A stretch of DNA of 17,968 nt from Vicinamibacterales bacterium. GTDB taxonomy: Bacteria; Acidobacteriota; Vicinamibacteria; Vicinamibacterales; CAVVIG01. The notes under the pieces were generated by a model that worked only from the letters and a program-made list of their open reading frames with translations, was not told where the DNA came from and did not search any database. The DNA lies in contig DATFXR010000157.1 of assembly GCA_035315685.1 (NCBI GenBank), forward strand, positions 1 to 17,968. The letters are read 5' to 3'. How positions within the stretch are numbered: the first letter of the stretch is position 1; the number at the start of each line of letters is the position of its first letter. Made by a program: the position numbers and the translations under genes. Positions 2,785 to 16,380 of this stretch are shown piece by piece.

Positions 2785-3225
2785 ATGAGGCAGATGGTGC
2801 AGCTCGCGGTTGTGGTGCTGCCGATCCTCGGCACGGCGTCGTTCGCGGCACCGGCCGCGACGGACGCCGAGATTCGCGCGATCGAGAAGCAGTGGAACGA
2901 GGCGCGCGTGAAAGCCGATATCGCGACGCTCGATCGCCTGCTCGATCGCGACTGGACCGTGACCCACGGCGACGGCACGATCGACACCAAGGCGGAGTAC
3001 CTCGGCGATTTGCGGTCCGGCGCGCGGAAGTTCTTCGCGGACGTCACCGAGGATCACGTCGACGTGCGCGTCTACGGAGACACCGCCGTCGCGTCCGGCA
3101 CGAGCGATTCGAAAGTGGAATACAAGGGCAGGCCGTCCGGTGGTCCGCTCCGCTTCACGCGCGTTTACATCAAGCGCGACGGCCGCTGGCTGATGATCGT
3201 CACGCACGCCACGCGCAGGAATTAA
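2785..3225 (+). CDS. DUF4440 / SnoaL-like (NTF2-fold) domain protein, predicted secreted
   Basis: ATG 2785 is preceded by GAGGAG (2774-2779). The listed ORF 2533..3225 is an upstream extension with no RBS and Arg-rich junk. The translation MRQMVQLAVVVLPILGTASFAAPAATDAEIRAIEKQWNEARVKADIATLDRLL...VYIKRDGRWLMIVTHAT fits the DUF4440/NTF2-like pattern (IxAIEKQW...D..ALD.L..DDW....DG....K.EYL). The stop TAA 3223-3225 is contributed by the first heptamer of the downstream repeat element. Confidence 0.7.
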   Translation: MRQMVQLAVVVLPILGTASFAAPAATDAEIRAIEKQWNEARVKADIATLDRLLDRDWTVTHGDGTIDTKAEYLGDLRSGARKFFADVTEDHVDVRVYGDTAVASGTSDSKVEYKGRPSGGPLRFTRVYIKRDGRWLMIVTHATRRN

Positions 3226-3328
3226 GAATTGAGAATTAAGAATTGAGAATTCGTGCCACGCTGGCAAGAGGCGAAATGTTGCGGTCGTGATCACGAATTC
3301 TTAATTCCAAATTCATAATTCTTAATTG
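3220..3328. repeat. AT-rich palindromic element built of 7-bp units (AATTAAG/AATTGAG ... AATTCTT/AATTCCA), family 1 copy 1
   Basis: Left arm 3220-3255: AATTAAG AATTGAG AATTAAG AATTGAG AATTCGTG. Right arm 3292-3328: CACGAATTC TTAATTCC AAATTCA TAATTCT TAATTGC. The arms are about 85% reverse-complementary, with a perfect 9-bp GAATTCGTG/CACGAATTC base, around a 36-nt GC-rich spacer. Composition is under 25% GC in a ~68% GC background. It overlaps the last codon and stop of the upstream CDS. Confidence 0.85.
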
Positions 3329-3494
3329 CAGGGTTCGGCCGTGACGCCGTCCAGCGGGCGAACCACTCCCTGGTCGGCGATCGCGTGCAGAAAACGTCGC
3401 ACCGTGATGCAAGGATTGTGCGTCCAAACGTGGAGCCGACGCTATACTGGCGCCGCGAAACGCTCGTGTTTACCGCTGTTTCAAGGAGGTTCTC

Positions 3495-4289
3495 GTGCCC
3501 GACGTGAACTCGCACCCGCCCGGAACGTTTTCGTGGCCTGAGCTGGCGACGACCGATCAGAAAGCCGGCGTTGCGTACTACCGCGGGCTGTTCGGCTGGG
3601 ATGTCAAAGAGGAGCCGATGGGTCCGACCGAGGTCTACTCGATGTTCCAGATGCGCGGCCGCCCGGTCGCCGCGGCGTACACGATGCGGCCGGAAGAGAA
3701 ACAGGCCGGCGCCCCGCCTCACTGGAACTCGTACGTCACCGTCAACAACGTCGACGAAGTCGTGACCAAGGCGCAGGCGATCGGCGCGCGCGTGTTCGCG
3801 CCGCCGTTCGACGTGATGGACGCCGGACGGATGGCCGTCCTGCAGGATCCCACCGGCGCGGTGTTTCAAGTGTGGCAGGCGAAGAACCACGTCGGGGCGA
3901 TGATCCTCAACGAGCCCGGTGCGCTCTGCTGGACCGAATTGACGACCAGCGATCTGCGGGCGGCGGAAGGGTTCTACACGCAGCTGTTCCACTGGACCGC
4001 GAAGCGCAGCGATCCCGCGTCGGGCATGGAGTACACCGAGATGAGCAACAACGGGCAGCCGGGCGTCGGCATGATGCCCAAGCCGCCGAACATGCCGGCG
4101 CACATCCCGTCGTTCTGGATGCCGTACTTCATGGTCGCCAACGTCGACGCGAGCACCGACAAGGCGAAGCAGCTGGGCGGGAAGGCGATGGTTGGACCGC
4201 AGGACATCTCGAACGTCGGCCGCTTCTCGGTCGTCAGCGACCCGCAGGGCGCCGTCTTCGCGCTGTTCCAGCCCGCTCCGCGGCAGTAG
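3495..4289 (+). CDS. VOC-family protein with two tandem glyoxalase/bleomycin-resistance-like domains
   Basis: GTG 3495 is preceded by AAGGAGG (3483-3489). The 264-aa product has two repeated halves ([10 protein letters not shown]...GLFGW...PMGP..YSMF / [10 protein letters not shown]...QLFHW....G.EYTEM) characteristic of duplicated VOC/glyoxalase-fold modules. Confidence 0.75.
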
Positions 4290-4311
4290 CAGACCGCTGC
4301 CACATCATGTC

Positions 4312-4365
4312 GTAGTGTCCGGCTTCACCCGGACCTCAGCGAGGTCCGCGGAAGGCGGACACTAC
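4312..4365 (+). terminator. GC-rich stem-loop 23 nt after the VOC gene stop; outer 10-bp stem GTAGTGTCCG/CGGACACTAC enclosing inner hairpins GTCCGG-CTTCAC-CCGGAC and GGACC-TCAGCGA-GGTCC
   Basis: A perfect 10-bp inverted repeat at 4312-4321 / 4356-4365 with nested hairpins. There is no U-tract. The first 23 nt (GTAGTGTCCGGCTTCACCCGGAC) recur at 12871-12893. It could be a terminator or a conserved structured RNA upstream of msrA (start 4408). Confidence 0.35.
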
Positions 4366-4407
4366 GCGCGTGTGATTTCCTGTTTAATAAGAGGCGGGGT
4401 ACGCACG

Positions 4408-5058
4408 ATGTTCACGAAGAAACGGCTGACGATCCCGTCAGCCGCCGAGGCACTACCCGGACGCGCCGAGCGGATGACGGTTCCGGACGCGCATTTCGTC
4501 AACCACCATCGTCTGGCGCCGCCGTTTCCCGATGGTCTGCAGCGGGCGCTGTTCGGTATGGGCTGCTTCTGGGGCGCTGAGCGGAAGTTCTGGCAGCTTC
4601 GCGGTGTCTACAGCACCGCGGTGGGGTACGCGGGGGGCCACACGCCCAACGCGACCTATCGCGAGGTCTGCACGGGTATGACCGGGCACAACGAAGTCGT
4701 GCTCGTGGTCTTCGATCCGAAGGTTGTCAGCTACGAGCAGCTGCTGAAGACGTTCTGGGAGAATCACGACCCGACGCAGGGCATGCGGCAGGGCAACGAC
4801 ATCGGCACGCAGTATCGATCCGGCATCTACTATTTCGACGGGGCGCAGCAGCGTGCCGCGGAGCAGTCGCGCGACGCGTTCCAGAAGCAGTTGACAGCCG
4901 CCGGCTATGGAACGATCACGACCGAGATCCTGCCGGCACCAGAGTTCTATTACGCCGAGGATTACCACCAGCAGTACCTCGCCAAGGATCCCGACGGCTA
5001 CTGCGGACTCGGCGGTACAGGCGTCAGCTGTCCAATCGGCGTGGGTGTGACTGCCTGA
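4408..5058 (+). CDS. msrA: peptide-methionine (S)-S-oxide reductase MsrA
   Basis: ATG 4408 follows GAGGCGGGG. The translation has the GCFWG active-site motif and near-colinear similarity to E. coli MsrA along its length (SAAEALPGR...[45 protein letters not shown]...[30 protein letters not shown]...[19 protein letters not shown]). The listed ORF 4192..5058 is an unsupported upstream extension. Confidence 0.93.
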
Positions 5059-5082
5059 TCGGCGGTGCCGCCGCTGCGCGCT

Positions 5083-5197
5083 GCAATTAAGAATTAAAGA
5101 AGTAAGAATTAAGAATTCCTGATCAGGCTGTCGCACTGCCTGGCAGCGGAACAGCGTGACGCGCATTCTTAATTCTTAATTTGTAATTCTTAATTGC
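5083..5197. repeat. AT-rich palindromic 7-bp-unit element, family 1 copy 2 (GCAATTAAGAATT...AATTCTTAATTGC termini)
   Basis: Left arm 5083-5121: GC AATTAAG AATTAAA GAAGTAA GAATTAA GAATTCCTG. Right arm 5161-5197: GCGC ATTCTTA ATTCTTA ATTTGTA ATTCTTA ATTGC. The arms are reverse-complementary apart from a 1-nt indel and a few mismatches, around a 39-nt GC-rich spacer containing CTGCC-T-GGCAG. The terminal 13 nt match copy 1. It lies 25 nt after the msrA stop and ends 3 nt before the hrpB ATG. Confidence 0.85.
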
Positions 5198-5200
5198 CCG

Positions 5201-7570
5201 ATGCCGGTCCAAGCACTTCCAATCGACGGGTACATCGAACCAATCATCGCAGCAGTCCGCCGCTCGCGTGCGGTCGTAGTCACCGCCGCGCCGGGGGCTG
5301 GAAAAACCACGCGCGTTCCGCCGGCGCTGCTCGTTGACGGTCCGGTGATCCTCCTGCAGCCGCGGCGCGTCGCGGCGCGCGCGATCGCGGCGCGGGTTGC
5401 CGCTGAACGCGGCTGGACTCTCGGCCGCGAGGTCGGTTGGCAGGTGCGCTTCGAGCGCCGCTTCTCGGCCGAGACCGCGCTGCTCGTCGTCACCGAGGGG
5501 GTACTCACAGCGCGGCTGCAACACGATCCGCTGCTGTCGAAGTTCCGCACGGTCGTGCTCGACGAGTTTCACGAGCGAAGCGTGCACGCCGACGTGGCCC
5601 TTGCCCTCGCCCGTCAGGCCTGGCGCGCCCGTTCGACCGCTGCCGCTTCGTCCTCGGCGACGTCGACCGACGAGGACCTGCGCATCGTCGTCATGTCGGC
5701 GACGCTCGACGCGGATGCGGTGGCGTCGTTCCTCGGCGACTGCCCGATCGTCGCCGTGCCGGGCCGCACCTATCCTCTCGACGTCACCTACACGCCCGGT
5801 GTGCCGATCGGTGAAGCCGCCTCGAGTGCGCTGGCGGCGACGGGCGGGCAGGTGCTCTGCTTTCTCCCGGGCGCCGGGGAGATTCGCCGCGCGGCCGCCG
5901 ACATCGAGCCGCGCGTCGGAGCGGACGTCGAAGTAGTGCCGCTCCATGGATCGCTGGACGCCGACGCACAGGGCCTGGCGCTCCGTCCGTCATCTCGCCG
6001 CCGGATCGTCGTCGCCACGAACATCGCGGAAACGTCGCTGACGGTTCCGGGCGTCACCGCCGTCGTCGATACTGGTCTGCAGAAGATTGCGCGGTACGAC
6101 GCCGACCGCGGCATCGACAGTCTCGAGACCGAGCGTGTCACTGCAGATGCTGCCGATCAGCGCGCCGGCCGTGCCGGCCGCCTCGCACCCGGCATCGTGC
6201 GGCGGCTCTGGGATCGGCGCGATCGATTGCGGCCGCATCGCGAGCCGGACATCCGGCGAATCGATCTGGCCGGCACGGTGCTCGATGTGATTGCCTGGGG
6301 CGGCGATCCACGGACGCTCGACTGGTTCGAAGCGCCGCCGGCCGATGCGATCGCCGCTGCGCTGACGCTGCTCGGGCGGCTCGGTGTGATCGACGGACGC
6401 GGCCGGCTGACCGCGTTGGGCGAGCAGGTGCGGCGGATCCCGCTGCATCCACGACTCGCGTGCATGCTCGCCGCCGCCGGCGGCGGACCTCAGATGGCGC
6501 GGGCCTGTGCGCTTCTCTCCGAACGCCATCTGTTGCCGCCGCGCAGCGCATCTACCACATCCGATCTCCTGTCGGCGCTGGATCACTGGTCCGGGATGCC
6601 GCCGCATGTCCACCACGCGGCGGCGAGTATCCAGTCCGCGTTTCGGTCAGCCATCAGCCCTCAGCCCTCAGCCATTGACCGCGGCGAGGCGGTATTCCGC
6701 CGGGCCGTCCTGTCCGGATATCCCGACCGGGTCGCACAGCGACGCGCGCCGGGATCGCCGGAAGTGCTGCTCGCCTCCGGCACGGGCGCCACAATCGCCC
6801 GCGACAGCGGCGTCCATGACGGCGAGTTTCTCGTCGCGGTCGACGTCGCGCGACGGGCGGCGCCCGCCACGGCTCTGGTCCGCATCGCGAGCCGCGTCGA
6901 GCGCGAATGGCTCGCGCCGACCGCATCAGAGACCGTGCACCGTTTCGACGGATCGAGCGGCCGCGTGAGGGCGTTCGCCATCGAGCGCTATCTGGCGCTG
7001 GTTCTCGGCGAGCAGCCCGTCGCCGCCGACGTCGACGTTGCCGCACGGATGCTCGCTGACGCCTGGCTGGCGCGCGGACCTCGCGGCGCCGATGCGCAGT
7101 TGCTGCGCCGCCTGCGCTTCGCCGGACACGAGGCGGACGTTGCAGAATTGATCCGCACTGCCGCGTACGGTGCGCGATCGCTCGATGCGGTCACGCCTGG
7201 CGCTGCGCTCACGCCAGCCGTCCTGCGCGATCTCGACCGCGACGCGCCGGAGATGCTCGCGGTGCCCAGCGGCCGCAGCGCACGCCTCGAGTACAACGAG
7301 GATGGGACGGTGTCGGCGTCGGTGAAGCTCCAGGAACTGTTCGGTCTCGCCGACTCACCGCGAATCGGGCGCCGCCGCGAGCCTGTTGTCCTCGCACTGC
7401 TCGCGCCGAACGGCCGTCCCGTCCAGATCACGCGCGACCTGCGCAGCTTCTGGAACAACACGTATCCGGAAGTACGAAAGGAGCTGCGCGGCCGCTACCC
7501 GAAGCACCCGTGGCCCGAGGATCCGTGGAGCGCACAGCCGACGCATCGGACTGTGCGCCGGAAGCATTGA
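5201..7570 (+). CDS. hrpB: ATP-dependent RNA helicase HrpB (DEAH-box family)
   Basis: 789 aa. Walker A APGAGKTT, DEFHERS (DEAH-box variant), SATLD, FLPGAGEI, TNIAETSLTV.GV..VVD.G and QRAGRAGR are all present, followed by an HrpB-type C-terminal domain (...RYPKHPWPEDPW). The N-terminus is colinear with E. coli HrpB. Confidence 0.92.
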   Translation: MPVQALPIDGYIEPIIAAVRRSRAVVVTAAPGAGKTTRVPPALLVDGPVILLQPRRVAARAIAARVAAERGWTLGREVGWQVRFERRFSAETALLVVTEGVLTARLQHDPLLSKFRTVVLDEFHERSVHADVALALARQAWRARSTAAASSSATSTDEDLRIVVMSATLDADAVASFLGDCPIVAVPGRTYPLDVTYTPGVPIGEAASSALAATGGQVLCFLPGAGEIRRAAADIEPRVGADVEVVPLHGSLDADAQGLALRPSSRRRIVVATNIAETSLTVPGVTAVVDTGLQKIARYDADRGIDSLETERVTADAADQRAGRAGRLAPGIVRRLWDRRDRLRPHREPDIRRIDLAGTVLDVIAWGGDPRTLDWFEAPPADAIAAALTLLGRLGVIDGRGRLTALGEQVRRIPLHPRLACMLAAAGGGPQMARACALLSERHLLPPRSASTTSDLLSALDHWSGMPPHVHHAAASIQSAFRSAISPQPSAIDRGEAVFRRAVLSGYPDRVAQRRAPGSPEVLLASGTGATIARDSGVHDGEFLVAVDVARRAAPATALVRIASRVEREWLAPTASETVHRFDGSSGRVRAFAIERYLALVLGEQPVAADVDVAARMLADAWLARGPRGADAQLLRRLRFAGHEADVAELIRTAAYGARSLDAVTPGAALTPAVLRDLDRDAPEMLAVPSGRSARLEYNEDGTVSASVKLQELFGLADSPRIGRRREPVVLALLAPNGRPVQITRDLRSFWNNTYPEVRKELRGRYPKHPWPEDPWSAQPTHRTVRRKH
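6648..6675 (+). repeat. intragenic run of four tandem heptamers CAGCCAT CAGCCCT CAGCCCT CAGCCAT inside hrpB (encodes SAISPQPSAI)
   Basis: Direct 7-bp tandem repeats read in the sequence. The unit is the reverse complement of the ATGGCTG unit used by the intergenic elements at 11904-11940 and 16280-16380. It lies in the variable linker between the helicase core and the HrpB C-terminal domain, and the frame is preserved. Confidence 0.7.
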
Positions 7571-7613: not shown

Positions 7614-8366
7614 CTAAAGGCGTCGCGCTACGTCAGGAGCATCGAGCGCTCCAAGCAGCGGCTGACCGGCGCGGGCAGCGTAGAAACCGAACGCGGCCGA
7701 GGCCAGGACGAGCGCGATCGAGAGATTGCCGGGCAGGGCCGCCCAGCTCGCGGCATGCGGCAGGATCGGTGCGACCGTCACGATGTTGTCCACGATGAGC
7801 ATCACCGCCGTCACCAGCAGGCCGAACCTGAAGATCGCCAGGGTGATGATGCCGATCGCCGTGAGCTGGCCGACCACGTAGAGCGACAACTCCTGACCGA
7901 ACGGGATGTTGCTCGTCACCGCAGCGGTGACGACGGTCATCCCGACCGCGACCGCGATCCACGTCCGCCTCACGATCAGGCGCAGGCCGACGAAGGTCAT
8001 CGTGATGAGCAGCGCGGTCTGAACGCTGCTGTAGAACTGGCCGGCCCAGGCCAGGATGAGCGAACCTGCGCCGCTCAGCACGCGCACGTCGCCATCCAGA
8101 AACGGCAGCGCGGGCGCGCGTCCGATCTGGTACGGCATCGCACCGCGGAACCCGTCGTTGACGATCAGCGCGGCTCCGAGCGCGACGCCGATCAGGATCT
8201 CGCGGCCGATTCGCGGGTCGCGGACGTGTCCGGCAAACAGCCGCGTCCATCCGAGCAGGCCGTCGGGCCAGAACCGCCGGCCATATGGCTCGAGCGCGAC
8301 GTAGAGCACCCACAACAGCGCGACTTGAAACAGCATGTTGCCGCAGACGCGGAAGAAGCTGTTCAC
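7614..8366 (-). CDS. polytopic membrane protein, stand-alone paralog of the C-terminal transmembrane domain of the upstream Ser/Thr kinase
   Basis: 250 aa from GTG 8366 (ATG alternative at 8336), hydrophobic throughout. It aligns clearly to kinase residues ~640-882: LYVALEPYGRRFWPDGLLGWTRLFAGHVRDPRIGREILIGVALG vs IYAALEPYGRRFWPEMLLGWSRLLSGRIRDPRVGRDVLLGVTFG, and C-termini FGFYAARAGQPLLG vs FGFYASRAGEPLFG. The frame upstream of 8366 hits a stop at 8424 and shows no kinase homology, so this is a separate gene, not a frameshifted continuation. Confidence 0.75.
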   Translation of the reverse strand: MNSFFRVCGNMLFQVALLWVLYVALEPYGRRFWPDGLLGWTRLFAGHVRDPRIGREILIGVALGAALIVNDGFRGAMPYQIGRAPALPFLDGDVRVLSGAGSLILAWAGQFYSSVQTALLITMTFVGLRLIVRRTWIAVAVGMTVVTAAVTSNIPFGQELSLYVVGQLTAIGIITLAIFRFGLLVTAVMLIVDNIVTVAPILPHAASWAALPGNLSIALVLASAAFGFYAARAGQPLLGALDAPDVARRL

Positions 8367-8475: not shown

Positions 8476-11091
8476 TTATGGCGGCGCGAATTTGCCGAAC
8501 AGCGGCTCGCCGGCGCGTGAGGCGTAGAAGCCGAACATGGCCAGCAGGACGATGGCGGCAATGGTCCAGTTCGACGCCGTCGCCGACCAGTGAGACACCT
8601 GCAGCGTGAACGGGACCGCCTGGCACAGACCGACCACGATCCTCGCAACCGCCGCTGCCAGCAATCCGAACCGTATCAGCACGAACGTGAATGCCGCGGC
8701 GATGATCAGCTCATAGGTCACCTCAACGGGCAGCGCTGCAGTGAAGGTCAATGTCGACCACCAATAAATGATGATCACCATCGCGATCGGGACTGCCAGC
8801 GACGCACGGCGCGTGAGCAGACGGAGCACGACCAGCAGCAGCACGCTACCCAGCGCGACCTGCAGCTCGCGCAGGATGATGGTCGCCCAGTCGGAGATCG
8901 TCTCTGCCGCGCCGAAGAGAGTGGTCGCGTCACTGCCCATCCGCGGCACCGTGCCCGGGTACCCGAGCGCCTGCGGCAGCAGCCGGCGCGCGATCTCCAG
9001 GCCAAACCAGACGACGCCGAACGTCACGCCGAGCAGCACGTCGCGGCCGACGCGCGGGTCGCGGATGCGCCCGGACAACAGTCGGCTCCAGCCCAGCAGC
9101 ATCTCCGGCCAGAATCGACGGCCGTACGGCTCGAGCGCCGCGTAGATCGTCCACAGAATCACGCCGAGCGCCACGGCATCGCTGAGGACCGCGCTCAGCG
9201 ACAATGCCTCCAGCCGCAAGTCGGGCAGGTGATGGTTGCCGGTCACCCACGACACCAGCTCCGTGCAGACGGCGAAGATGGCGACGCGCATCGCGCCGCG
9301 CCGGTCGGCACGGCCGTGCCGCACGTTGTAGCGTGCCAGCACGACGGCGCCGCCGAGCAGCGCGACGAGTACGGTCAGGAACACCGCATACCCGATCCGG
9401 TCTTCGAGTGCCCGCTGCACGGCCTGCATCCGCGTCGGCACGGTCCACGGACCGATCAGCAGGAACGACACGGCGCGGCCGCGATACGCCGCGGCCTCGA
9501 CCCGCACCCGCAAGTCGGCGCGGCCCGGCAGCGCGCCTTCCCACGCCCCGCGCGCGTCGGCGTAGTCGCGCGGCGTCCACTGGGTCTCGACCGCCGTGAA
9601 GTCGCGCATCGGCAGATCCGCGAGCTCGAACAGTTGCGGCCACGGCGGCGGTATCGCCGCCGCGGCTCCGCCGTCTTCGAACTGGCGAGGCACCGACGTG
9701 AACCCGATCAGCCGCCCGTGCATGTCAATCGTCACGGTATGCATGTCGGTGTCCGCCTGCGGCGGATCGAGCGGCGTCACGTGCAGCGCAAGCTGTCGCG
9801 GCGCGAGCGTGTGTGGGCTGGTGCGATACCAGAAGATGAATCCCGGCGGCCGATCGCGCCCGAGCACGTCCCAGCGGTTCGGGCTCAGATCCGTTCTCGC
9901 GATCCACACGATGTACGGCGCATACGGCCCGAGGCCGTGCGCCGTATCGCCGCGCGGCTCGTTGTAGCCGAGCGCGCTGAGGATCTGCTCGGCCCGATCG
10001 TCGAGGACCGCGGGCGGCTTGTCGAGCGGCAGCAGCCGCGACAGCGTCGTCCGCGTCGCGAATCCGGCGCAGAGCAGCATCGCGATCGTCACGAAGAGGA
10101 GCGCCGACAATCCCTTCGTGACTGGCCACGCATCGGTCTCGCCGGCCGCGGCCACCATGTCGGGCGACGGCGTTTCGCCGGCGGCCAGCGCCGCGGCGAG
10201 TGGATCGCCACCGGGCAGCGCGGCCGCGACCGTCAGTACCGACGCCGGCCGCTCGTCCGGATCGCGCGCGAGGCAGCGGAGGATGACGCGCTCCACCGCC
10301 GGATCGAGATCGCGCACGATCGCCGACGGCGTCGTGATGGTGCCGGTGTCATGCAGCTGTCTCAATTCGCCGAGGGTCTTCGCGTCGTAGGTCCGGCGGC
10401 CGGTGACGATCTCGAACAGAATCAACCCGAGCGCGTAGAGGTCGCTCTTGATCGACGCCGGTTTGCCGGCGAGCAGCTCCGGCGCCATGTACTGCGGCGT
10501 GCCTGCAACGTCGACGCCGATGTCGTTCGCCGCCGTCGCGATGCCGAAATCGGTGATGCGGACGTTGCCGTCGCCGTCGATCATCACGTTCGCCGGTTTG
10601 AGATCGCGATGGATGACGCCGCGTTCGTGCGCCGCGGCGATCCCGGCGCAGAGTTGCCGCGCGACGTCGATCGCCTTGTCCTGGGGGAAGCGGCCGATGC
10701 GGCGGAGCAGCGACGCGAGATCTTCGCCGTCCACGTATTCCATCGTCAGGAACCGCCGCCCGTCGGCGTCGCCGAGGTCGTAGAGACGGCAGACGTTCTT
10801 GTGCGACACTTGGCGCGCGATGCGCAGCTCGTTGTGGAACTGCGCGAGCCGCACGGGATCAGCGGCGACACCTTCGGGGAGGAACTTGAGCGCGACCGGC
10901 TGGTCGAGGGTGAGGTCGTCGGCGCGGTAGACCTCGCCCATGCCGCCGCGGCCGAGGAGCGCGACAAGGCGATAGCGCGCGGCGATAATCGATCCCGGGG
11001 CGAACCGGCTCGTTTTTGGCGGCGGTGCCTGCGGCGCCGTCCGCACCATTGACGGCTCGAGCGTGAGATCGTCCTCAGGGGACCGCGGCAT
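8476..11091 (-). CDS. Hanks-type serine/threonine protein kinase fused to a periplasmic segment and a large C-terminal multi-TM domain
   Basis: The kinase subdomains are readable: LGRGGMGEVY (Gly loop), ALK, HRDLKPANV (catalytic loop), DFG, APE. A TM helix (LSALLFVTIAMLLCAGFA) follows, then a ~230-aa non-hydrophobic segment, then ~7 predicted TM helices. The start is uncertain, with no obvious SD at GTG 11124 (longest), ATG 11091 or ATG 11049. The stop at 8476 is firm. Confidence 0.88.
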   Translation of the reverse strand: MPRSPEDDLTLEPSMVRTAPQAPPPKTSRFAPGSIIAARYRLVALLGRGGMGEVYRADDLTLDQPVALKFLPEGVAADPVRLAQFHNELRIARQVSHKNVCRLYDLGDADGRRFLTMEYVDGEDLASLLRRIGRFPQDKAIDVARQLCAGIAAAHERGVIHRDLKPANVMIDGDGNVRITDFGIATAANDIGVDVAGTPQYMAPELLAGKPASIKSDLYALGLILFEIVTGRRTYDAKTLGELRQLHDTGTITTPSAIVRDLDPAVERVILRCLARDPDERPASVLTVAAALPGGDPLAAALAAGETPSPDMVAAAGETDAWPVTKGLSALLFVTIAMLLCAGFATRTTLSRLLPLDKPPAVLDDRAEQILSALGYNEPRGDTAHGLGPYAPYIVWIARTDLSPNRWDVLGRDRPPGFIFWYRTSPHTLAPRQLALHVTPLDPPQADTDMHTVTIDMHGRLIGFTSVPRQFEDGGAAAAIPPPWPQLFELADLPMRDFTAVETQWTPRDYADARGAWEGALPGRADLRVRVEAAAYRGRAVSFLLIGPWTVPTRMQAVQRALEDRIGYAVFLTVLVALLGGAVVLARYNVRHGRADRRGAMRVAIFAVCTELVSWVTGNHHLPDLRLEALSLSAVLSDAVALGVILWTIYAALEPYGRRFWPEMLLGWSRLLSGRIRDPRVGRDVLLGVTFGVVWFGLEIARRLLPQALGYPGTVPRMGSDATTLFGAAETISDWATIILRELQVALGSVLLLVVLRLLTRRASLAVPIAMVIIIYWWSTLTFTAALPVEVTYELIIAAAFTFVLIRFGLLAAAVARIVVGLCQAVPFTLQVSHWSATASNWTIAAIVLLAMFGFYASRAGEPLFGKFAPP

Positions 11092-11117
11092 GCGACGAAT
11101 TCTACTGGAGGAGAGAA

Positions 11118-11762
11118 ATGACACGGACAGTCATGGCAACATGCGGCGCGGCGCTGTTGCTGAGTGCAGCGCTCATCGCGCAGGGCGGCCGACCGGCGAG
11201 TCCCGCCGGGTCGTCAGCCACGCAGGTCGGCGGCAAGTACGACACCAGCGGCGCCGAACCTGTCTACAGGGGCGGCAAATGGATTGAAATCACCTACGGC
11301 CGTCCGATCAAGCGCGGCCGCGACATCTTCGGTGGCACTGGCGACAACTACGGCAAGACGGCCAATCCTGACGCACCGGTCTGGCGAGCGGGCGCGAACG
11401 TGTCGACCCAGCTCAAGACCGAAGTGCCGCTGGTGATCAACGGCAAGACGGTCGCGCCCGGTACCTACACGATGTTCATCGATCTCAAGCCGAGCAACTG
11501 GACGCTGATCATCTCCAACTGGAAGGCGGCCACGACGTTCAATCAGAACAACGACGCCAGCAAGACCGGCGAAGTCTTCGGCGCCTACGGCTATTCGCCG
11601 GAAAAGGACGTGGTCCGCGCCGTGATGAAGACGTCGACGCTGCCGTTCTCGGTCGATCAGCTCACGTGGAACTTCACGGACATGAGCGATGCCGGCGGCA
11701 ACATCACGATCATGTGGGACAAGATGACCGCCTCCGTACCGTTCCGCGTCGGCGGCTCGTAG
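11118..11762 (+). CDS. DUF2911-like secreted protein
   Basis: ATG 11118 is preceded by GGAGGAG (11105-11111). The N-terminal signal-like segment is MTRTVMATCGAALLLSAALIAQG. Motifs WRAGANVST, GKTVAPGTYTMF, WTLIISNW and GAYGYSPEKDVVRA match my recollection of the DUF2911 family. Confidence 0.7.
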   Translation: MTRTVMATCGAALLLSAALIAQGGRPASPAGSSATQVGGKYDTSGAEPVYRGGKWIEITYGRPIKRGRDIFGGTGDNYGKTANPDAPVWRAGANVSTQLKTEVPLVINGKTVAPGTYTMFIDLKPSNWTLIISNWKAATTFNQNNDASKTGEVFGAYGYSPEKDVVRAVMKTSTLPFSVDQLTWNFTDMSDAGGNITIMWDKMTASVPFRVGGS

Positions 11763-11815
11763 AACCGATGGGACTGATGGGCCCATAGGGTGGCTGGGGC
11801 TCGCCGAACCTTTCG

Positions 11816-11903: not shown

Positions 11904-11940
11904 GATGGCTGATGGCTGATGGCATATGGTTAATGGTCAT
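11904..11940. repeat. tandem heptamer array GATGGCT GATGGCT GATGGCA TATGGTT AATGGTC, separating the ADOP remnant from the CRTAC1 fragment
   Basis: It shares an identical 19-mer ATGGCTGATGGCTGATGGC with the left arm of the element at 16280-16380. It contains the TAA (11931-11933) that closes the upstream side of the CRTAC1 reading frame. A degenerate ATGG-rich stretch (GATGGGACTGATGGGCCCATAGGGTGGCTGGGGC, 11767-11800) lies upstream of the ADOP remnant. Confidence 0.75.
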
Positions 11941-12794: not shown

Positions 12795-12859
12795 CTGGGG
12801 ACCGGGGACTGGGGCTGGGGCTGGGGCTGGGGTTGGGAGCTGGAGGCTGGGACTAGCTG
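12795..12859. repeat. G-rich tandem array CTGGGGA CCGGGGA (CTGGGG)x4 TTGGGAG CTGGAGG CTGGGAC; left arm of an imperfect inverted pair whose right arm is 12957-12986
   Basis: It starts at the base after the CRTAC1 stop. GGAGCTGGAGGCTGGGAC (12834-12851) is approximately complementary to GGCCCCCAGCTTCCAGCGC (12957-12975). Confidence 0.6.
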
Positions 12860-12870
12860 TCGTTACACCG

Positions 12871-12893
12871 GTAGTGTCCGGCTTGAGCCGGAC
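12871..12893 (+). other. second copy of hairpin motif GTAGTGTCCGGCTT-GAG-CCGGAC (perfect 8-bp stem GTCCGGCT/AGCCGGAC)
   Basis: 21 of 23 nt identical to 4312-4334 (GTAGTGTCCGGCTTCACCCGGAC). It lies in the spacer between the CTGGGG/CCCCAG arms. Confidence 0.5.
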
Positions 12894-16278: not shown

Positions 16279-16279
16279 G

Positions 16280-16380
16280 ACATGGCTGATGGCTGATGGC
16301 TCATGGCAATGGCTGATGGTTGAAGCGTTCAGCCATCGACCCTAGCCATTAGCCATTAGCCATTAGCCATTAGCCATGTC
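16280..16380. repeat. palindromic element of 7-bp units: (ATGGCTG)-type left arm / (AGCCATT)x4 right arm, family 2
   Basis: Left arm 16280-16320: ACATGGCT GATGGCT GATGGCT CATGGCA ATGGCT GATGG. Right arm 16328-16380: TTCAGCCATCGACCCT AGCCATT AGCCATT AGCCATT AGCCATT AGCCATG TC. It fills exactly the gap between convergent stops (16278 and 16385). The mismatches between arms are systematically G (left) opposite T (right), which pair as G-U in the + strand RNA but as C/A in the - strand RNA. Confidence 0.85.

Follow-up and report, generated by a model that had tools for sequence, protein, structure and literature searches.

The window analysed here is a 17,968-nt contig of a Vicinamibacterales (Acidobacteriota) MAG, in which msrA is followed by hrpB, a gene pair that is conserved in relatives. 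Between the two genes lies an imperfect palindrome with arms of tandem heptads (copy 2; Table 1). In direct reading it extends from GCAATTAAGAATT at 5083 to AATTCTTAATTGC at 5197 and is laid out as GCAATTAAGAATTAAAGAAGTAAGAATTAAGAATTC, a 46-nt centre and CATTCTTAATTCTTAATTTGTAATTCTTAATTGC. TRF detected period-7 arrays at 5085-5117 (4.6 copies, 85% matches) and 5165-5195 (4.4 copies, 83% matches), and an inverted-repeat finder paired the arms both with each other and with those of a second element at 3218-3329 (copy 1). The double heptad AAGAATTAAGAATT, with up to two mismatches allowed, occurs 11 times in the window, always within these two copies; 0.01 occurrences were expected from shuffles. 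RNA spanning 5060-5230 folded at -68.9 kcal/mol (z = -4.7), a stability reached by none of 200 shuffles, and the DNA fold of copy 2 gave z = -6.7. GC content over the two copies was 0.52-0.55 in 200-nt windows, compared with 0.62-0.74 in the flanks and 66% in the window as a whole; the arms of copy 2 are ~19% GC, and the unit AAGAATT has no G-tract. An independent ENA assembly encoding an identical HrpB also has an msrA-hrpB spacer of 142 nt, so the palindrome is not an assembly artefact. The palindrome that the original prediction placed between these genes is therefore real, and its identity and its operon context are direct observations.

Table 1. Positions of the heptad palindromes and neighbouring features in the window.
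Feature	Position	Strand	Details
Copy 1, same family as copy 2	3218..3329	.	DUF4440 gene stop (TAA, 3223-3225) within its first heptad
msrA	4408..5058	+	PF01625, E = 1.7e-64; stop 5056-5058, 24 nt 5' of the element
Left remnant of native msrA-hrpB spacer	5059..5082	+	24 nt
Copy 2, whole heptad-armed imperfect palindrome	5083..5197	.	115 bases; arms of ~4.5 tandem heptads each (AAGAATT / AATTCTT)
Copy 2, 5' arm	5083..5117	+	GC + AATTAAG AATTAAAG AAGTAAG AATTAAG AATT; A-rich heptads, one 8-mer
Copy 2, centre	5118..5163	+	46 nt, 62% GC
Copy 2, 3' arm	5164..5197	+	CATTCTT AATTCTT AATTTGT AATTCTT AATTGC; T-rich heptads
CCG + ATG	5198..5203	+	'CGATG' start context kept in all close orthologs, with or without element
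hrpB	5201..7570	+	Pfam: DEAD, Helicase_C, HrpB_C domains
Third palindrome, different unit (ATGGCTG / TAGCCAT)	16279..16380	.	Architecture as copy 2; between two convergent stop codons

The sister element of the same architecture is also real (fold z = -7.7). Its terminal 13-mers had been said to match those of copy 2; this is exact for the right end (AATTCTTAATTGC, 3317-3329) and holds at 12 of 13 positions for the left end (GGAATTAAGAATT). The centre of copy 1 is inverted with respect to that of copy 2, and the two copies match the family profile on opposite strands although both lie 3' of + strand genes; the orientation of the centre is thus not fixed relative to the gene. As originally noted, no target-site duplication or other flanking direct repeat is visible at either copy (flanks GCGCGCT and CCGATG at copy 2, CGCGCAG and AGGGTT at copy 1), and the elements therefore resemble the REP type more than a classical MITE; the REP-like idea is a reasonable one. 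The ends of copy 2 are GCAATT...AATTGC, with no GTAG head. Its centre alone does not fold significantly (z = -1.2). Rfam 15 covariance models gave no match at E <= 1 for either copy in the window, and nothing matching the element reached the Rfam gathering score in 17 element-bearing loci.

Only CCG separates the right arm from the hrpB ATG (5201-5203), as had been pointed out, and an in-frame TAA at 5177-5179 excludes an earlier hrpB start. We scanned positions 2900-5600 for sigma-70-like promoters (non-sigma-70 promoters are outside the scan's reach) and for terminators composed of a GC stem-loop and a U-run. No promoter was found, nor was any such terminator (0 sites; shuffles expect 2.4), which leaves the suggestion that the element is a terminator with no canonical one in this region. 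An internal promoter or a leaderless hrpB mRNA was dropped as a positive claim after the promoter scan. The original prediction was right that neither an independent promoter nor a Shine-Dalgarno (SD) element lies between the palindrome and the ATG; co-transcription is therefore the likely state. It also anticipated a long hairpin-forming element on the strand of both genes, in agreement with their shared + strand and with the stable RNA fold.

Its claim that the hrpB initiation region lies within the hairpin is not supported for the AUG itself. Positions -15 to -1 of hrpB are paired in the fold with the element (P(unpaired) 0.14, versus 0.46 in the element-free ortholog L002), but the AUG falls outside the heptad helix, at the foot of the stem (P(unpaired) 0.36). 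The locus was first viewed as a cis-regulatory switch dedicated to hrpB, one that would gate its translation or attenuate transcription on a signal. In favour of this, the 3' arm as RNA spans hrpB positions of about -37 to -4, and the folds of two orthologs (L003 and L001) contain outer helices between the sequence just 3' of the msrA stop and the start region of hrpB. These outer helices are not kept in the MFE fold of the window, however, and a conserved AUG-sequestering outer helix was rejected on that ground. Moreover, the orthologs without the element equally lack an SD, family copies stand at unrelated and often convergent genes (copy 1 follows a DUF4440 gene) with the centre in either orientation, there is no Rfam match, and the centre, the expected place for a ligand- or protein-specific fold, is not conserved. 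Because the scattered family usually lies 3' of stop codons, a dedicated hrpB switch is very unlikely.

We compared the spacer with those of orthologous gene pairs. In relatives without the element, the distance from msrA to hrpB ranges from an overlap of the ORFs (L005, L008, L011, L017) through 4 nt (L004, L012), 22 nt (L019) and 31 nt (L016) to 56-57 nt (L002, L267, L268), and an SD before hrpB is absent from all of these. A spacer of 123-142 nt occurs only in carriers of a heptad palindrome (the window, L003 and L001); the element is therefore an insertion into, or an expansion within, the operon spacer. The close orthologs without the element (L002, L267, L268) are themselves SD-less, so the SD-less start predates the element and is not its effect. 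The spacer was already short and SD-less when the element arrived. The msrA-hrpB region varies in other ways: the two genes have a second msrA paralogue inserted between them in L002 and L267, only one partial msrA ORF was called in L268, and on the P0003 contig, whose HrpB is 79% identical, the spacer is 305 nt, room for two elements.

Among the carriers, L003 (HrpB 82% identical) has the same AAGAATT element with the end AATTGCGCGATG. At the corresponding site of L001 (HrpB 79% identical), the arms of the element consist of TGGAATK / MATTCCA units, and the centre retains ACAGCGTGAC, which it has in common with copy 2. Other repeat-built palindromes occupy the msrA-hrpB spacer of L014 and L057, and in L269 a decayed AAGAATT/GAGAATT array stands upstream of hrpB, starting inside the stop codon of the upstream gene. 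Covariation across the three orthologs gave 5 compensatory pairs of 47, a count to be read with the small number of sequences and problems of register in mind.

These comparisons bear on an alternative account, in which the palindrome is selfish or neutral DNA: a tolerated, slowly decaying copy whose AT-rich arms persist by slippage and homogenisation, with gene ends as the least harmful sites. The decayed copy in L269 and the missing element in the close relatives L002, L267 and L268 speak for this account, and retention at the orthologous site in three lineages, with HrpB identity of only 79-82%, speaks against it. We consider it possible but unlikely, and return to it with the wider class below.

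Copies sharing the features of copy 2 were found at unrelated loci in other Acidobacteria MAGs (two each in L005, L109 and L115, and one each in L151 and L191), with nhmmer E-values of 1e-27 to 1e-12. Family membership is thus directly observed: the copies share the termini GCAATT...AATTGC, the irregular arm GAAGTAAGAATTAAGAATTCGT and parts of the centre. The irregular GAAGTAAGAATTAAGAATTC in the 5' arm of copy 2 recurs in other family copies, its central CTGTCGCACTGCCTGGCAGCG agrees with L005 at 20 of 21 positions, and CTGTCGCRCTGCCTGGCAGCG is likewise common to the window and L005. A BLAST search of the element against annotated plasmids and phages returned a single uninformative match of 28 nt, presumably an effect of the low-complexity filter. 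Neither a mobilising enzyme nor a clean empty site was found for the heptad family.

The architecture extends well beyond this family. We searched 185,579 species genomes for the pattern GAATTAAGAATT-N30-60-AATTCTTAATT and obtained at least 118 stretches with AATT-core heptad palindromes; by chance, their number would be negligible in GC-rich genomes and would reach tens at most in AT-rich ones. Matches came from Bacteroidota (Chitinophaga, Hymenobacter, Fibrella, Emticicia, Prevotella), Acidobacteriota (Pyrinomonadaceae, Blastocatellia, Vicinamibacterales, Terriglobia), Patescibacteria, Planctomycetota, Cyanobacteria, Bacillota (Firmicutes), Chloroflexota and other groups. Among the matches listed, locus GC ran from 0.27 to 0.71 and the arms were always below it, with a mean of 0.16; in every one the array runs past the search pattern, each arm averages 4.5 heptads, and AATT is almost fixed while the other positions vary. 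The 7-nt units share an AATT core and read RRGAATT in the 5' arm and AATTCYY in the 3' arm. Several genomes hold multiple copies per 8-kb block. Phage contigs also carry elements, and one of them (L207) has three copies whose centres are identical but whose heptad numbers differ, which points to both dispersal and slippage. Of the long palindromes in the DNA that we fetched, 149 of 258 had period-7 arms, built from dozens of unrelated units; the third palindrome of the window (16279-16380) is among them. To our knowledge, the AATT-core heptad palindromes have not been described as a class; a full-text literature search for the unit sequence returned primers only and no account of AAGAATT arrays. 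Two Rfam matches at gathering score, an Acido-Lenti-1 RNA in a Pyrinomonadaceae MAG (L164, 2526-2573) and a type II hammerhead on a phage contig (L220, 7702-7770), lie near heptad elements but have no relation to them.

The most regular feature of the class is its position. Flanking genes were called by an ORF and codon-position-GC heuristic; the estimated distance from an element to the next start is a lower bound only and uninformative. By these calls, 68 of 120 elements lie between co-directional genes, 22 between convergent and 13 between 'divergent' ones; at least one 'divergent' call (L131) looks mistaken, and the pair there is probably convergent. The median distance from stop codon to element edge is 3 nt (interquartile range -6 to +8). 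In 64 of the 68 co-directional cases the stop falls within 30 nt of the edge on either side, and in 47 it is part of the element; between convergent genes both stops adjoin the element (e.g., L084, L089, L141, L150, L005). Elements of the class thus sit at gene 3' ends, next to or overlapping stop codons. The original prediction had asked how often the family abuts start or stop codons; it usually adjoins stops rather than starts. Copy 2 is exceptional only in that the downstream start is nearer to it (3 nt) than the upstream stop is (24 nt), a consequence of where it landed, in a spacer of about 27 nt.

The elements also have a preferred polarity. In palindromes collected outside the pattern selection, a purine/A-rich 5' arm with a T-rich 3' arm was seen in 39 cases versus 12 with the reverse (p = 2e-4), 2 of the 12 being runs of N. 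Viral contigs gave 6 forward-polarity stretches and 0 reverse ones with the strict pattern, and a looser pattern gave about 40 true forward versus about 10 true reverse elements. The T fraction is 0.52 in the 14 nt 3' of the centre, compared with 0.31 on its 5' side.

Position and polarity together suggest a bidirectional terminator or 3'-end-forming module, in which the A-rich arm, the centre and the T-rich arm would mimic an A-tract, hairpin and U-tract read in both directions, and most msrA transcripts would end at the element. Elements adjoin stops and exactly fill convergent gaps, their T-rich downstream side and polarity bias fit, and inverted repeats are about 13-fold enriched 3' of bacterial stop codons (PMC13155455). 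Nevertheless, copy 2 offers no canonical stem followed by a U-run, and its full stem precedes CCCGAUG. The centre is seldom a strong GC hairpin: only 33 of 117 centres folded with z < -2, and mean centre GC was 0.43 compared with a locus mean of 0.50, which led us to reject a GC-rich terminator hairpin as a general trait. Further objections are that the site lies within a conserved operon whose hrpB has no detectable promoter, and that about 20% of elements are reversed in polarity. We therefore judge it improbable that such a module accounts for the element.

If the hairpin acted as RNA from the upstream gene's strand, mismatches might favour G:T over A:C. Counted relative to that strand, G:T and A:C mismatches numbered 95 and 75, no significant sense-strand bias (p = 0.14). 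In the Vicinamibacterales family, complementarity between the halves of one copy (0.82) does not exceed the likeness of halves between copies (0.83); selection for pairing is therefore not demonstrated there, and these copies look, from their sequences, like products of decay from a common palindromic consensus. Stops in all frames on both strands were rejected as a selected trait, since tiled shuffled heptads give more such arms than the real ones (27 vs 20 of 53); they are a by-product of period 7. All three results agree with the neutral account introduced above. Against it stand arms held at 16% GC even where the genome is ~70% GC, recurrence of the same unit across phyla, a 4:1 polarity bias that would be unexpected of junk DNA, and the copies in Chitinophaga, which are 98% self-complementary yet only 84% alike.

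In Chitinophaga vietnamensis, two near-perfect palindromes of 134 bp (L150, 2917-3050) and 112 bp (L131, 4401-4512) fold as RNA at -110 and -90 kcal/mol, and their outer ends include the stop codons of both convergent genes. Palindromes of 112-134 bp are usually unstable in E. coli.

The element might instead act as DNA, with an AT-rich palindrome extruding a cruciform or serving as a site for a nucleoid or topoisomerase protein at gene ends, in the manner of BIME-gyrase/IHF sites. Strand-symmetric mismatches, the near-perfect palindromes of 112-134 bp in some genomes, the DNA fold of copy 2 (z = -6.7) and the extreme AT-richness of the arms are all compatible with this. The polarity bias is hard to square with a symmetric duplex site, though, and no protein partner is known; we rate action at the DNA level the least probable of the explanations considered.

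The closest published description is that of the Xanthomonas GGGAATC heptamer repeats, reported together with GGGGAYT in Nostoc. These form arrays of typically about 4 units, and each genome has 70-75 inverted pairs in convergent orientation (Rehm et al. 2015, PMC4692102). They lie within tens of nt of the upstream ORF stop or overlap it, they are transcribed, and transcript starts and stops are more frequent there (PMC4692102). As cited in the same article, bacterial heptamer over-representation is credited to Mrazek 2007. The heptad palindromes are like the Xanthomonas type in having tandem 7-nt units, inverted arrays able to form a stem-loop, an intergenic position near or over the upstream stop and under-representation between divergent genes, and the units themselves are similar (GGGAATC vs AGGAATT / TGGAATT). 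They differ in that the Xanthomonas repeats are G-rich and defined by G-quadruplex potential, whereas the heptad family has no G-tracts and has arms of 16% GC, shares termini and centre motifs across loci, and uses the same unit in many phyla and phages. The likeness to the Xanthomonas arrays is thus structural and positional and does not include the G-quadruplex.

Other heptamers are less similar. Those of Beggiatoaceae (TAACTGA) form mostly direct arrays upstream of starts, with a single inverted case in the genome (MacGregor 2015, PMC4679880), and cyanobacterial and Beggiatoaceae heptamers in general are mostly direct arrays near start codons (Pradhan 2022, bioRxiv 10.1101/2022.06.06.494920; PMC4679880). 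Like the heptad elements, STRR and TAACTGA repeats are intergenic tandem arrays, some adjoining starts, with a suspected role in translation or transcription; unlike them, they are mostly direct rather than inverted, and their units differ from AAGAATT. The cyanobacterial STRR heptamer repeats were reportedly described by Mazel in 1990.

REP, BIME and REPIN elements, like the heptad family, are dispersed extragenic palindromes that lack a target-site duplication and occupy the 3' ends of genes and the spacers of operons, and they are transcribed as hairpins, as the heptad element probably is. The heptad element differs in being AT-rich, in lacking a GTAG head and in having arms of tandem heptads, and we know of no RAYT partner for it. 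REPs stabilise upstream mRNA, attenuate transcription and affect translation when within 15 nt of the stop codon; such REP/BIME effects in E. coli operons are said to have been shown by Newbury (1987), Espeli (2001), and Liang, Rudd and Deutscher (2015). MITEs such as the Correia elements are comparable in size (about 100-150 bp), terminal inverted repeats, multiple intergenic copies and, probably, co-transcription, and the Correia elements of Neisseria are targets of RNase III. In contrast to MITEs, the heptad element has no target-site duplication and has internally repetitive arms; no parent IS with matching ends is known to us. Bidirectional intrinsic terminators resemble it in lying 3' of stops and between convergent genes, with A-rich sequence to the 5' and T-rich sequence to the 3', and differ in that the heptad element has arms of 30-40 nt, an intra-operon position and no contiguous U-tract beside a GC stem.

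Taken as a whole, the explanation that we prefer, with about an even chance of being correct, is that of a dispersed REP/MITE-like palindrome with heptamer-SSR arms that forms a co-transcribed intercistronic hairpin affecting msrA and hrpB. A copy would have landed in, or expanded within, the short msrA-hrpB spacer, 3 nt 5' of the hrpB ATG. We infer that it is transcribed with both genes and would fold in vivo into a hairpin with AU-rich arms of roughly 35 bp. By analogy with REP/BIME elements in E. coli operons, the hairpin may keep 3' exonucleases away from the msrA segment upstream of it. Pausing or attenuation of transcription and cleavage by RNase III are further possible outcomes; the predicted stem of copy 2 is long enough for that enzyme (>=20 bp of near-continuous dsRNA). 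The hairpin would bury hrpB positions -35 to -4, not the AUG, and could reduce access of ribosomes to the hrpB start; we propose that hrpB expression is consequently lowered and partly uncoupled from that of msrA. Attenuation or translational damping is plausible as a side effect of the element. With the hairpin folded, the msrA stop and the hrpB start would be separated by 24 + 3 = 27 unpaired nt, a distance within the ancestral spacer lengths of 22-56 nt, and this could have made the insertion tolerable.

A bolder extension, which we offer as speculation and think unlikely, is that AATT-core heptad palindromes constitute a coherent bacterial and phage module, found in genomes of 27% to 71% GC, which a conserved factor, or the transcription-translation machinery itself, would read 7 nt at a time and which would define gene and mRNA ends in both directions. 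In operons like msrA-hrpB the hairpin would then loop out and bring stop and start to within 27 nt; terminating ribosomes could re-initiate across its base, analogous to ribosome shunting.

Over-representation of heptamers in bacteria has been recognised since 1990-2007. The window ties one element to a very wide class defined by an AT-rich unit, a palindromic layout, placement at stop codons and a preferred polarity. This class includes cultured strains (Chitinophaga, Hymenobacter, Fibrella, Emticicia, Sedimentibacter, Crocosphaera) and is therefore experimentally tractable. It also matters for annotation, as such elements supply stop codons, lengthen operon spacers and can be in frame in genes like hrpB.

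Several other repeats occur in the window. The third palindrome (ATGGCTG x6 ... TAGCCAT x5) exactly fills the gap between the stop of a Band7 gene (16278, +) and that of a convergent amidohydrolase gene (16385, -). Its RNA folds at -76.9 kcal/mol (z = -10), and it contains five G:T oppositions that would be G-U pairs only in + strand RNA. A separate, GTAG-headed REP-like family is represented by two exact matches to GTAGTGTCCGGCTTSASCCGGAC (4312-4334 and 12871-12893; 0 expected), each shortly 3' of a gene end, with an inverted partner near 4360-4378; similar hairpins of the GGTCCGGCTT type are present in L010 and L019. An array of about 9 (G)CTGGGG units at 12795-12851 begins right at the stop of an FG-GAP/ASPIC gene (12794), and its unit is similar to the reverse complement of cyanobacterial STRR1 (CCCCAGT). 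Further 7-nt repeat debris follows the stop of a DUF2911 gene (11762) at 11765-11790 and 11904-11940, as GATGGGACTGATGGGCCCATAGGG, then GATGGCT x3, then degenerate units. A 144-nt direct repeat with 76% identity, its copies 841 nt apart (8171-8314 and 9012-9155), connects a 250-aa ORF (7614-8366, -) with part of a Ser/Thr kinase gene (8476-11124, -), which suggests a partial paralogue.

Heptad arrays are also found in frame within hrpB itself, in the window (6647-6675) and in L002 (7414-7440), L006 (3277-3355) and L012 (3049-3155). They lie at a linker of hypervariable length at about aa 478-492, where the window encodes the peptide SAISPQPSAI. In L006 and L012 the linker holds complete TGCGGAT/ATCCGCA heptad palindromes encoding '...IRNPQSA...', similar to the in-frame palindromic elements of Rickettsia.
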